Shown: positions 12,001-18,000 of the stretch, piece after piece
Layout of the letters: each line of letters starts with the position of its first letter
Numbering within the stretch: position 1 is the first letter of the stretch
Sequence record: NC_011356
DNA length: 54,896 bases
Source: Enterobacteria phage YYZ-2008
Strand: one strand, 5' to 3'
Program-made: the position numbers

Positions 12001-15000
12001 ATCAATCCACAGGAGTAATTATGACAAAACGTCGTAAGAAATACCAGGAAAAAGAAGAGATTCGACACCCTGATTCACCTGAGGGATTAGTGGTAGCCGC
12101 AGCAAATAACAGGGCGTTCGCAGAGCGCCTTGTTGGTGTTTACAGACTAGCCAAAGCAGGAGTGAAACATGGGCGTCGTTAAGTTAGCTGATTACAGGCC
12201 TCAACTGGAGGTCGTGGAGCATCGCGTGGCAGATACCGAAGATGGTTTCATGCGCGTTGCTAACGAGATTACCGACAGTCTGCTGATGGCTGATTTAACC
12301 GTCCGGCAGTTGAAGGTGATGCTCGCTATCATGCGCAAGACATACGGATTCAATAAGCCGATGGATCGACTCACAAACACGCAGATAGCAGCCATGACAG
12401 GTATTCATCACACTCATGTTTGCGCTGCCAAGCGCCAGCTTATTGAGCGTAAATTCCTCATTGCTGATGGCGTGAAAATCGGAGTGAACAAGGTGGCTTC
12501 TCAGTGGATTAGCCAGGACAGCTTAACATTAGCTAAAACAGCTAATAAAACATTAGCCAAGTCGGCTAATGGGTATAAGCCAAGTCAGCTAAACACAAAA
12601 GACAATATACAAAAGACAATAAATACAAATACCCCCTTACCCCCTAACGGGGATGGCGATGGGCAGGTTAAACCTGAACGTCGCAAGGCAGAACGAATCG
12701 ACTACGAATCCTTCCTGAACGCCTACAACACCGAAGTCGGTGACAGACTTCCACACGCTGTTGCGGTCAACGAGAAACGAAAACGCCGCCTGAAGAAAAT
12801 TATCCCGCAACTGAAAACGCCAAACGTGGACGGTTTCAGAGCGTATGTCAGGGCGTTTGTGCATCAGGCCAAGCCGTTTTACTTCGGAGACAACGACACG
12901 GGCTGGACGGCAGATTTTGATTACCTGCTGAGGGAAGATTCGTTAACGGGAGTTCGGGAAGGGAAGTTTGCAGACAGGGGGATTGCATGAGACAGGATAT
13001 CGAAGCTAGCGTTATCGGTGGCCTGCTGATTGGTGGATTAACTCCAACCGCCAGTGACGTTCTGGCAACGCTGGAGCCGGAAGCGTTTTCAATTCCGCTC
13101 TACCGGAAAGCCTTCGAGGTTATTCGCAAGCAGGCGAGAAACAGAAACCTAATCGATGCGCTGATGGTTGCCGAGGCGTGCGGAGAGGAGCATTTCACGT
13201 CAATCCTGATGACCAGCAAAAACTGCCCGAGTGCCGCAAACCTGAAGGGATATGCCGGAATGGTCGCGGATAACTATCACCGCCGTCTGGTGCTGGAAAT
13301 CATGGATGAAATGCGTGAACCAATCCAAAGCGGAACCATCGACGCATCGAGTCAGGCGATGGATGAACTTGTAAAGCGTCTTTCAGCCATCAGAAAGCCC
13401 CGTGACGAGGTTAAACCTGTACGGTTAGGGGAAATCATCACTGACTACACTGACACGCTTGACAGGCGTCTGAGGAACGGAGAAGAGTCAGATACCCTGA
13501 AGACCGGAATCGAAGAGCTTGACGCTATCACCGGAGGGATGAACGCAGAAGACCTGGTGATTATCGCCGCTCGTCCTGGTATGGGGAAAACCGAACTGGC
13601 GCTGAAGATTGCCGAAGGTGTGGCAAGCCGCGTTATTCCTGGTTCTGACGTCCGGCGCGGGGTATTGATTTTCTCAATGGAAATGAGCGCATTGCAGATT
13701 GCAGAGCGAAGCATTGCCAACGCCGGGAGGATGTCGGTTAGCGTACTGCGAAATCCTGCATCGATGGATGACGAGGGCTGGGCACGTGTTGCTAACGGCA
13801 TGAGTCAGCTTGCAGATTTGGATGTATGGGTAGTCGATGCTTCGCGGTTATCGGTCGAAGAAATACGCTCAATCGCAGAACGGCATAAGCAGGAAAATCC
13901 AAACCTGTCACTCATCATGGCGGATTATCTTGGCCTGATTGAGAAGCCGAAAGCAGACCGCAACGACCTCGCAATTGCTCACATCTCCGGAAGCCTGAAG
14001 GCGATGGCGAAAGACCTGAAAACACCGGTTATCTCCCTGAGTCAGCTTTCGCGCGATGTTGAGAAGCGACCAAACAAACGCCCGACAAACGCAGATTTGC
14101 GTGATTCAGGAAGCATTGAACAGGACGCAGACTCAATCATCATGCTCTATCGGGAAGCGGTATATGATGAGAACAGTAGCGCCGCGCCATTTGCTGAAAT
14201 CATCGTGACGAAAAACCGTTTTGGCTCGCTTGGTACAGTTTACCAGCGGTTCTGTAACGGACACTTTGTTGCATGTGACCAGGATGAAGCCAGACAGATT
14301 TGCACAGCATCAAATGCACCTGCTGCGCGTGGCAGACGATATGCACAAGGGGCTGACGTATGACCATCTACATCACTGGGCTAATAACAGGCCTGCTGGT
14401 AATCGCAGGCCTTTTTATTTGGGGGAGAGGGAAGTGAACGATAGCTACCGACAGTTTGAAAACTGGTGGTCAAAAGACAAAAGCCAGTTCACGGGAGACG
14501 ATGAATTAAAAGAGTTTGCCTGGGTGATATGGCAGGCATCGCGCTCTGCTATTGAACTGGATATCGACTGGCCCGAATCGAATGACGACCTTTGGAAAGA
14601 TGGTGAAGAAGGTGCTTATGCGATGGGTTATGAGGATGGGCGTGACAAAACGGTAATTGCAGTAATGAAAGCCATCAGGGCCGCAGGAATCAAAGAAAAG
14701 AATTTCGATTAAGCAAATATCACTTCAATAAATCGCTTTTAAGGCATCACAATCGCTCTGTAGTGAGGTAAACGCGTGCAAGGCATGCCAATAAGTAGCG
14801 AGAATGAAAAATGCGTCAGAATGCGTTTGAGGAGGTTTTAAGAAATGAGTACGATAGCTGAGCTTGTCAGGGCTAATTTTCGTGAAGAGTTGGTGCGTTG
14901 GTATCGGTATCGTTCATCGTCCAGTTTGCCGCTTGATGAGTTGTATGAGCATTCACCTGCCGCACGACGCTATCCGCGTGACCGTGTTCTTCGACGGTTG

Positions 15001-18000
15001 TTCAAACTCAACAATGAGTTTCAGCGCAACAGAATTATCCGGAGTCTGGATTTAAAGTGAAGGAGTGAGCATGAGCGACCTATCATTAACCCAGCCAAAG
15101 CTAAAAGAATGTCCGTTTTGCGGCGGTAATGCTCGTCTGTGGGTTGAGGCCGGAATAAATATTGATGTGTGGGGCTATGCAGAATGTGACCTCTGTGAAG
15201 CCAGGGGGGCATGGGCACCATCAGTTGCTGCGGCGGCTGAAAAATGGAACCGGAGAGCAGGAGATGAAGCAAACCTTTCTGCTTCGCAACGAAGCAATCA
15301 GAAATAACGCCATAGACGCCATTCTCTCACTACCCATCGACGACAAGTCACCCCACGAAGTCCACGTTAAAGAACCCAAGCGCAGCAAAGCGCAGAATGA
15401 CCGCATGTGGCCGATGCTGAACGATGTTTCGCGTCAGGTGCTATGGCATGGTCAACGGCTGGCGCCGGAAGACTGGAAAGACCTGTTCACTGCCCTGTGG
15501 CTTAAGACCAAAAAACTGGAGCAACGAAGTGTGCCTGGTATCGACGGTGGCGTTGTCATGCTTGGCGTGCGTACCAGCAAAATGCGGAAGGCCAGCATGA
15601 CTGAGCTTATCGAAATCATGTTCTGGTTCGGCTCAGAGCGCAACGTGCGGTGGAGTGATGACTCCCGGCGAGAGTATGAATGGTCACAACGAAAAGGGAA
15701 GGCTGCATGACTATCAAATCAAATACGCCAGCACACGACAAGGACTGCTGGCAAACGCCGCTCTGGCTTTTTGATGCGCTGGATATTGAGTTTGGATTCT
15801 GGCTGGATTCAGCTGCGAGCGACAAAAACGCTCTGTGCGCTCACTGGCTAACTGAGGCTGACGACGCGCTAAATTCTGAGTGGATAAGCCACGGTGCAAT
15901 CTGGAATAACCCACCGTACAGCAATATCAGGCCGTGGGTGGAAAAAGCCGCTGAGCAGTGCATACAACAGCGACAGACGGTAGTGATGCTTGTGCCAGAG
16001 GATATGTCTGTCGGATGGTTCAGCAAGGCTCTGGAGAGTGTTGACGAAGTTCGCATCATCACTGATGGACGGATTAATTTTATCGAACCATCGACAGGGC
16101 TGGAGAAGAAGGGAAACAGCAAAGGCTCAATGTTGCTGATTTGGCGACCGTTCATCAGTCCTCGACGGATGTTTACTACCGTATCCAAAGCGGCATTGAT
16201 GGCGATCGGGCTGGGCGTCAGGAGGGCTGCATGAGGCGACAGCGACGAAGTATCACCGACATCATCTGCGAAAACTGCAAATACCTTCCAACGAAACGCT
16301 CCAGAAATAAACGCAAGCCAATCCCAAAAGAATCTGACGTAAAAACCTTCAACTACACGGCTCACCTGTGGGATATCCGGTGGCTAAGACATCGTGCGAG
16401 GAAAACAAGGTGATTGACGCGATGATTTATTCGGGGCTATATTCCTCACGCGCCAGCAAAATCTGGCGTCGGGATTAGCACCCCGGATATCGAAACGGTG
16501 CATAACCGCGCTGGCGGTTTTTTTATGCGCTAAGCACAGTCACATTCGCGATTTATGGCGGGCTGTGTGGGGGAGCCGAAAGGCTCGCCGGATGTTTCGA
16601 CCGGTAGTGCTAACCCCGCACAGTTCGCCACCACGATGATTAGCACCTGACGGTGGCGAGGTAAAAATAATCGAAACGCGAGGTCATTATGGCTGTTCAA
16701 ATTTCTGTCGAAAACCTTTCCCCTGTTACCTATAACCAGATCCCCGTAATTACTACTGAACTGTTGGCTCACCTTTACGGAACAAAAATCAAAAACATTT
16801 CTGATAACTTTCTGAACAACACGACGCGATTCATGCCCGGAAAGCATTACTTTAAAATTGAAAAAAACGAATTACGCGAGTTTAAGAACAGACCCGAAAC
16901 AATCGGGTTAGTTGGTAAAAATGCCCGCTCCCTCATCCTCTGGACAGAACGCGGAGCAGCCCGTCATGCAAAATGCTCGAAACCGATCAGGCGTGGGAAG
17001 TNTTCGAAAACTGGAAAGACTGCTATTTCAGCCCAGTGCGAGAAAAATACTGGCAAACAAGAGAAGNAAACCCAATGAGCTTTCTGCAAAAGANGCAAAC
17101 AGCCTTGTATGGTTATGGGATTATGCCANCCGCTCACAGGCATAATTCCGCGAACTGTATCCGGCGCTAAAACAAATTCAATCGAACTATTCCGGCAGAT
17201 GTTACGACTACGGTCATGAGTTCTCGTATGTTATTGGAATGGCGAGAGACGTTTTAATCAATCACACACGAGATGTTGATATTAATGAGCCAGACGGACC
17301 AACGAATCTTTCCGCATGGGTAAGGCTTAAGAACAAAGAATTACCTCCTTCACTACATCGCTACTGACAATTGACAACTTAACAAACCCAGCTTCGGCTG
17401 GGTTTTTTATTGGTGAATTTTCAATATGAGAGGACATGACAATGAACGAGCTGATAAATAGCAATGCCATCAAAATGACAAGCATTGAAATCGCTGAGTT
17501 GGTGGGAAGCCAACACGGTAATGTCAGAATATCAATAGAACGTCTGGCAAAGCGTGGGGTGATTCAACTTCCTTCAATGCAAAAAGTTGAAAATAAACAA
17601 ACAATTAGCCCTAACAAATTCACAAGCGTGTATATATTCGAAGGCGAACAAGGTAAGCGAGACAGCATTATTGTCGTCGCTCAGTTGTCGCCGGAATTCA
17701 CCGCTCGCCTTGTTGACCGCTGGCGAGAACTCGAAGGGGCAACCGCGAAAATACCACAAACCTTTTCTGAGGCATTGCGCCTTGCGGCCGACCTTGAAGA
17801 CCAGAAGGCTGAACTGGAGAAACAGCTTGCTCTCGCAGCACCTAAAGTTGAGTTTGCCGATCGAGTTGGCGAGGACAGCGGAATTTTGATTGGAAACTTT
17901 GCAAAGGTTGTTGGTATTGGTCCAAACAAACTGTTTGCGTGGATGCGCGATCACAAAATCCTTATTGCTTCAGGTGCCCGGCGCAATGTGCCAATGCAGG

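Follow-up and report, generated by a model that had tools for sequence, protein, structure and literature searches.

In phage lambda, the terminator tR2 and the small open reading frame (ORF) ninA ('Orf26', 40567-40647) share one piece of the pR operon, placed between the replication genes and the nin genes. We report here on the corresponding element at positions 14360-14437 of Enterobacteria phage YYZ-2008 (NC_011356), of which a stretch of 54,896 nucleotides (nt), called the window in the following, was analysed. The window is a lambdoid Shiga-toxin (Stx)-type prophage of E. coli O157:H7. We consider, with a probability of about 0.8, that 14360-14437 represents the lambdoid ninA/tR2 cassette in its Stx-phage version, i.e. 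a Rho-independent terminator located inside a 25-codon ORF that is linked to both of its neighbours.

The lambda element was studied experimentally by Li et al. (Nucleic Acids Res 2016, PMC4824070), who set tR2, preceded by its natural upstream sequence, between two reporters. According to this work, lambda tR2 is located 30 bp past the ninA AUG and 16 bp ahead of the ORF's stop codon, and the NinA initiation site 'is not weak'. The upstream reporter, otherwise at about half of the reference, was restored upon mutation of the ninA ribosome-binding site (RBS) or AUG, and its loss was ascribed to non-stop translation and trans-translation on the terminated RNAs. For NinA, the same paper cites Kröger and Hobom 1982 and, for ribosome profiling in lambda, Liu et al. 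2013. It was the only publication found when the literature was searched with the peptide sequence or with 'NinA protein'. Additionally, the nin genes, with ninA among them, are described as non-essential and as tightly chained by ATGA in the phage-L genome paper, according to which the whole nin region is dispensable in lambda.

The leader-peptide attenuators (pyrBI, amino-acid operon leaders) share with ninA a short translated ORF that overlaps an intrinsic terminator, and the position of the ribosome can therefore in principle affect termination. Unlike in these leaders, translation of lambda ninA reduced the termination efficiency of tR2 (maximum about 0.9) by only about 10% (PMC4824070), and neither regulatory codons nor an antiterminator hairpin are evident. 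By analogy with lambda, the control of read-through at tR2 would be N antitermination, which is not the mode of the leader attenuators.

The window resembles lambda in the hairpin, the U-tract, the downstream Shine-Dalgarno (SD) sequence, the reading frame and the preceding ATGA, with 97% identity over 76 nt, and its ninA occupies the same place of the pR operon. The genes on both sides are different. The upstream gene is ren in lambda and a DnaB-like helicase gene in the window, whereas the downstream gene is ninB in lambda and a GTG-start gene for a 92-amino-acid (aa) protein of the PF26207 family in the window, so that the ORF has 25 codons here compared to 26 in lambda. The order of 933W, orf4 (ninA)-orf5 (92 aa)-orf6 (71 aa)-orf7 (Lar-like)-ninB, is the same as that of the window, and 933W and Nil2 (ninA/tR2-ORF29-ORF30) show 98-99% nucleotide identity to it; the 933W cassette follows ren and not a helicase gene, while Nil2 agrees with the window throughout. 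In Salmonella phage P22, as in the window, ninA comes after a DnaB-type helicase gene (gene 12), the stop and the start overlapping, and the identity over the cassette is about 94%. P22 ninA differs by its C-terminus and its downstream partner, ninB being next in the P22 record. The ending ...RVNRG, which has an 8-nt GTGGCTGA overlap, comes from P22-related IMG/VR loci and not from P22 itself.

In the window, the cassette presents the following features.

14360..14437, plus strand: ninA ORF of 25 codons, homologue of lambda 'Orf26'/ninA and of P22 ninA, with an ATGA overlap with the preceding stop and a GTGA overlap with the following start.
14347..14352, plus strand: SD-like AAGGGG within the coding sequence of the helicase, 7 nt before the ninA ATG.
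14389-14396 and 14405-14412 (arms) with 14397-14404 (loop), plus strand: tR2-type terminator hairpin, annotated as tR2 or rho-independent terminator in Nil2, 933W and 434.
14412..14420, plus strand: terminator U-tract TTTTTATTT, the geometry of which agrees with the lambda description in PMC4824070.
14421..14431, plus strand: G-rich SD GGGGGAGAGGG of the 92-aa gene, directly 3' of the U-tract (-8.4 kcal/mol), annotated as RBS in the phage 434 record.

The first-pass annotation had reported a 25-aa ORF with an ATG start, an ATGA overlap with the helicase stop and an RBS. The ORF listing contains this ORF, the overlap is located at 14360-14363, and the RBS corresponds to AAGGGG at 14347-14352, for which the SD/anti-SD duplex energy is -6.8 kcal/mol, a value that 6.9% of background windows also attain. 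At the other end, the ninA TGA overlaps the GTG of the 92-aa gene as GTGA (14434-14437). The peptide matched phrog_5907 with an E value of 2e-16 (residues 1-25 on a 27-position profile) and shares 24 of its 25 residues with the lambda peptide; in a sensitive DNA search, window 14360-14435 was 97.4% identical to lambda 40567-40642. Read directly, the lambda counterpart begins with the ATGA that closes ren, extends to the ninB ATG and encodes MTIYITELITGLLVIAGLFIWGRGKS (26 aa).

Records of related phages agree with this identification. The Nil2 record names the ORF ninA and marks a 'tR2 terminator' inside it, and the 933W record has 'orf4; homologous to ninA gene' with an internal 'rho-independent terminator'. 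The phage 434 record contains an ORF similar to lambda 'Orf26', for which the RBS, the internal terminator and the next RBS are annotated, and in the P22 record ninA is annotated after helicase gene 12. Considering the lambda homology together with the annotations in Nil2, 933W, 434 and P22, the ninA/tR2 feature is already known. Clear homology to lambda ren/nin products, which the first-pass annotation had itself named as speaking against its reading, is thus what the locus presents (ninA, 97% nucleotide identity). PGAP leaves the 25-codon ORF unannotated and 14364-14433 blank.

The ninA peptide exhibits a hydrophobic stretch of membrane-spanning length (I3-W21), a basic C-terminus and a grand average of hydropathicity (GRAVY) of 1.35, and frame 0 is the only open and hydrophobic frame across the ORF. 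The hairpin and the U-tract encode G11-I20, about half of the peptide. Residue 7, which is Glu in lambda, is Gly in the window: codon 7 (window 14379) is GGG here and GAG in lambda and nearly all other copies. This replacement is non-conservative and is common to only 3-4 of the approximately 230 loci surveyed below.

The canonical intrinsic terminator within the 25-codon ORF had been overlooked in the first-pass annotation. The stem AGGCCTGC/GCAGGCCT has 8 bp, of which 6 are GC pairs, and closes an 8-nt loop. In a scan of the 8 kb between 11000 and 19000, this site was the top-ranked terminator-like site, and its fold energy is -16.8 kcal/mol (z = -2.4). RNA 3' ends are expected to fall within 14412..14420, at least 14 nt before the ninA stop codon. 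The site has the characteristics of a lambdoid tR2, i.e. a GC-rich stem-loop followed by a U-tract on the pR-sense strand, homology to lambda and the same position in the operon, and the tR2 terminator is the dominant known function of the sequence 14360-14437. Its activity in this phage and its override by N would be those of lambda: terminator strength and start-site activity have been measured only for the 97%-identical lambda element.

We surveyed approximately 230 related loci from IMG/VR and public records, which were retrieved with three anchors, namely the neighbouring 92-aa gene, the first 17 nt of the ORF, and the 3' arm of the hairpin together with the U-tract. With the 5' and 3' anchors, parts of the sequence are given beforehand, and counts were limited to the unanchored parts; five loci (L100, L140, L145, L197 and L185) in which unrelated genes matched only the first 17 nt were left out. 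The 78 loci found through the 92-aa gene are therefore unbiased as to the ninA cassette, and all 78 contain the hairpin and the U-tract. Three of the four stem substitution types are C-to-T changes by which the pairing is kept as G-U. Two diverged cassettes have other stems, GGGCTAT/GTAGCCC and GGCCAC/GTGGCC, each then followed by a T-run, and still encode a hydrophobic peptide. The alternative stems are compensatory replacements, and the terminator is strongly constrained.

A scan of species-representative genomes gave 23 matches, about half of them on low-coverage (~1x) contigs, several of approximately 48.5 kb, in unrelated genera. The lambda ninA cassette was found in this way in assemblies of Pseudomonas, Shewanella, Oceanobacillus, Neobacillus and further genera (L236, L238, L245, L246, L255 and others). 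These low-coverage contigs look like contamination by lambda control DNA, and the scan is uninformative on host range.

The comparison also bears on the translation of ninA. The cassette follows seven classes of upstream 3'-end sequences, and in 7/7 of them the upstream stop overlaps the ATG and a SD-like site is present at -4 to -20, inside the upstream coding sequence; over these seven contexts, the Fisher combined p value for the SD-like sites is 5e-6 compared to background windows. Downstream, approximately nine unrelated genes follow, among them the 92-aa gene, ninB, DUF7301, and 68-aa and 108-aa genes, and the ninA stop either overlaps the start that follows or is only a few nt away from it. 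The overlap takes the form ATGA, GTGA or GTGGCTGA in nearly all downstream contexts, the last ninA codons vary with the partner gene, and most loci have an ORF of 24-27 codons. Outside the hairpin, in codons 2-10, we counted 13 substitution types, of which 8 are synonymous against an expectation of 23-29% (p between 0.003 and 0.013 according to the transition bias); the replacements are mostly conservative (I/V, I/M, T/A, T/S). From these patterns, the tiny ORF across tR2 looks selected for its translation rather than kept by accident, with modest support. Real initiation at the 14360 ATG is supported both by these comparative tests and by the lambda experiment on the 97%-identical element.

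Several observations weigh against a cassette in which terminator, ORF and coupling are all maintained. In 7 of the 78 loci, a 1-nt deletion in the loop leaves an ORF of only 13 aa and an intact hairpin, and in 2 of the 78, as well as in several loci elsewhere, the ORF is split by an inserted gene for a 203-aa HNH endonuclease. One locus carries a Trp-to-stop change that ends the ORF early, and in variant L146 the frame is shifted relative to the U-tract and the ORF runs into the next gene. Because such truncated and split loci exist, neither the full-length peptide nor an unbroken coupling is required. Moreover, the cassette is mostly >95% conserved, hence the substitution counts given above are small, and they are counts of substitution types and not of independent events.

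That NinA would be first of all a functional small inner-membrane protein, the terminator merely sharing its sequence, seems quite unlikely. The membrane-spanning length of I3-W21, the basic C-terminus, the GRAVY of 1.35 and the single open and hydrophobic frame agree with such a protein, as do the bias of codons 2-10 to synonymous changes with mostly conservative replacements, the SD in every upstream context and the hydrophobic peptide still encoded by the different-stem cassettes. Nevertheless, the hairpin is kept in 78/78 loci while the ORF is reduced to 13 aa in 7/78 and endonuclease-split in 2/78, a Leu-to-Gln replacement lies in the hydrophobic core, mid-helix, in 9 loci, the C-terminus differs with every downstream partner, the window has Gly7 against Glu in nearly all others, and the nin region is described as non-essential. 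Searches of the peptide for toxin, holin, spanin and defence families gave no match in Pfam, NCBIfam or PADLOC, the E value of 0.82 obtained with a Rz-like spanin being insignificant, and a Rfam scan of 13800-15600 gave no match either. The layout is not that of a toxin-type locus, as the ninA ORF belongs to the early-right operon and not to the lysis cassette. The first-pass description of a hydrophobic, helicase-coupled ORF with a RBS stands, but the proposed roles of toxin, lysis modulator or assembly factor are unsupported, considering the absence of a PADLOC match, the spanin E value and the loci in which the ORF is truncated or split. The ninA product is a 25-aa peptide of membrane-spanning length, for which a function of its own is possible and which is evidently dispensable. 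It is, on the other side, highly improbable that the ORF is an untranslated and meaningless by-product of a GC-rich stem and a T-run that happen to read as Gly, Leu, Val, Phe and Ile codons. There are only 25 codons, of which G11-I20 are encoded by the hairpin and U-tract, PGAP has no annotation, and the hairpin is conserved more strictly than the ORF; but each of 7 upstream contexts brings a SD-like site (p 5e-6) together with a stop/start overlap, the ninA stop is adjusted anew to the start that follows in about 9 downstream contexts, most changes in the part not covered by the hairpin are synonymous, and silencing of the lambda RBS or AUG altered the reporter output (PMC4824070).

The 76-nt block could also be conserved mainly as a recombination linker, or as a homing target, for the exchange of replication and nin modules, a reading that we hold as tentative and somewhat doubtful. 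It would account for the inter-phage similarity that runs exactly from the ATGA to the next start, between flanking genes that are not homologous, for the extra genes inserted at ATGA joints and for the HNH endonuclease gene found inside the cassette in several loci. It is compatible with the terminator and coupling roles, but it leaves the compensatory hairpins and the conservation of the SD unexplained. As the similarity is limited to the segment between the ATGA and the next start, and as genes are inserted at ATGA joints, the ninA/tR2 cassette, which we prefer as the identity of 14360-14437, also acts as a mosaic boundary.

Two kinds of insertion were observed at such loci. In L035 (1762-2504), and also in L049, L089, L162, L188 and L216, the 203-aa HNH endonuclease gene (phrog_99, E 1e-71) is located in ninA, directly 5' of the tR2 hairpin. 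New AT-rich sequence is joined there to the initial 32 nt of ninA, giving a 34-aa hydrophobic ORF, and on the 3' side of the insert the hairpin and the U-tract remain intact. This arrangement suggests a homing endonuclease with the ultra-conserved cassette as its target. In L259 (731-1000; TL-2011a, JQ011316) and in many Stx2a phages, an extra 89-aa gene stands between the helicase gene and ninA with ATGA at both ends, which illustrates the ATGA joints as module boundaries.

For the ninA/tR2 cassette of the window, we propose the following mechanism, modelled on lambda. The pR transcripts unmodified by N would end at the U-tract (14412-14420), which would restrict entry into the nin genes and Q, whereas N-modified polymerase would pass tR2, an N gene and a nut-like site being present in the window. 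Ribosomes would initiate at 14360 by means of the SD in the helicase gene, or re-initiate after the helicase stop. On the read-through RNA, they would melt the hairpin and stop at the TGA that overlaps the GTG of the 92-aa gene, adjacent to the SD at 14421-14431, and translation in this phage would be relayed along the chain of nin genes. On the terminated RNA, ribosomes translating ninA would meet no stop codon, as follows from the geometry and as was proposed in PMC4824070.

The ORF might further be a selected 'non-stop switch' that couples the stability of the early mRNA and the translation of the nin genes to the antitermination status, an idea that we consider rather unlikely. In such a switch, run-off at tR2 would recruit transfer-messenger RNA (tmRNA) and trigger the decay of the upstream replication-gene mRNA, while on N-antiterminated transcripts the same ORF would pass ribosomes to the next nin gene. 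Some lambda-P22 hybrid phages depend on tmRNA, which may be linked to a switch of this kind.

The two genes that follow ninA are listed below; a GTG-initiated 92-aa ORF and a 71-aa ORF had been reported at these coordinates, and both are found in the ORF listing.

14434..14712, plus strand: gene for a 92-aa acidic protein (isoelectric point, pI, 4.4) of PF26207 and phrog_343, 'phiTE_015 family protein' in RefSeq (WP_001000130.1, same coordinates).
14845..15060, plus strand: gene for a 71-aa basic protein (pI 10.8), predicted helical, of DUF7301 (PF23975) and phrog_1785, 'DUF7301 family protein' in RefSeq.

The first-pass annotation could assign no motif to the ninA, 92-aa and 71-aa ORFs. Families are found for all of them (phrog_5907, phrog_343/PF26207 and DUF7301, respectively), and the 92-aa and 71-aa proteins, taken there as unknown, thus belong to known phage families, so that the earlier statement is only partly right; these families give no functional lead for either protein. 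The 92-aa protein matched phrog_343 in its conserved C-terminal part with an E value of 4e-29. PF26207 is a precomputed assignment on relatives that are 98-100% identical to it, and our own Pfam and NCBIfam scans of the 92-aa protein gave no match, the PF26207 model being presumably absent from the copies used. Within this family, conservation is found in the N-terminal helix and in the last 55 residues, with a variable part between them, and the named homologues come only from phages and prophages of Enterobacterales.

The 71-aa gene has a SD, GAGGAGG, of -12.9 kcal/mol. Its product matched the DUF7301 profile over positions 1-64 of 65 with 91.5 bits (cut-off 27) and an E value of 3.8e-26, and the family presents an invariant YPRDRVLRR motif. 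A search of 1.84 billion representative proteins with the DUF7301 profile found only 46 clusters, all of short proteins; DUF7301 stands alone in the ten of ten clusters scanned, which therefore offer no informative domain fusion. An alignment of DUF7301 also appeared to match P22 Cro (E 2e-7). This match came from a single member, P0113, and was gone once P0113 was removed; P0113 is a chimera in which the 40 N-terminal residues of P22 Cro and the 29 C-terminal residues of DUF7301 meet at 'DAY'.

AlphaFold2 models of the two proteins were of moderate confidence, with a predicted local distance difference test (pLDDT) score of 70 for the 92-aa and 76 for the 71-aa protein. In Foldseek searches against the PDB, the 92-aa model had no match and the best E value of the 71-aa model was 2, and profile searches of PDB sequences with both families gave nothing significant. 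PADLOC gave no matches for these proteins. The 92-aa and 71-aa genes belong to two small families and are accessory, non-essential members of the nin region; they are independent modules, since in some phages DUF7301 stands directly after ninA and the 92-aa gene is missing. As genes for Lar and a methyltransferase adjoin them, they may, with low confidence, be accessories for host interaction or anti-defence. Between them lies an untranslated gap of 132 nt (14713-14844), which is unusual in the tightly packed nin region and in which we found no unusual fold (z = 0.03), promoter or terminator match, Rfam match or special conservation.

The region 14300-15100 is 100% identical in several O157:H7 chromosomes and 98.8% identical in Stx phages 2851 and Stx2a_WGPS8, and 2053 of 5426 complete E. 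coli genomes contain sequence similar to it. The local order in the window is cI-like repressor, cro, cII, O-like initiator, DnaB-like helicase, ninA ORF, 92-aa gene, 71-aa gene, Lar-family gene, ninB, adenine methyltransferase and ninE. The neighbouring features that take part in the proposed mechanism or adjoin the cassette and its followers are these.

12987..14363, plus strand: DnaB-like replicative helicase gene, 458 aa (phrog_19, E 9e-136; RefSeq 'replicative DNA helicase').
15071..15307, plus strand: Lar-family restriction-alleviation gene (TIGR03655, E 4e-17), next in the chain after the 71-aa gene.
8541..8885, minus strand: N-like antiterminator gene (phrog_271, E 4e-25).
11561..11606, plus strand: putative nutR between cro and cII, with a boxA-like CGCTCTTT and a boxB-like hairpin TCGCTGAAAAGCGA, recognised by eye.

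The helicase gene contains the ninA SD within its last codons and its TGA stop overlaps the ninA ATG. The segment 11561-11606 is presumably the counterpart of lambda boxA and boxB, which we take it to resemble. The window also contains single N bases at 5208, 5308, 17002, 17067, 17094, 17129, 22361, 45025 and 53392. Four of these are located in 16689-17170, where RefSeq relatives have a truncated ORF6N-domain pseudogene beside antirepressor genes.

The value of these results lies mainly in annotation: what appeared to be a mystery membrane peptide belongs to the regulatory sites that were mapped earliest in lambdoid phages. As tR2 gates the N-dependent expression of the nin genes and Q, the element stands upstream of the toxin-expression pathway in Stx phages, and, if the non-stop or the coupling role is true, it would be a neat case of a terminator and an ORF in one sequence.

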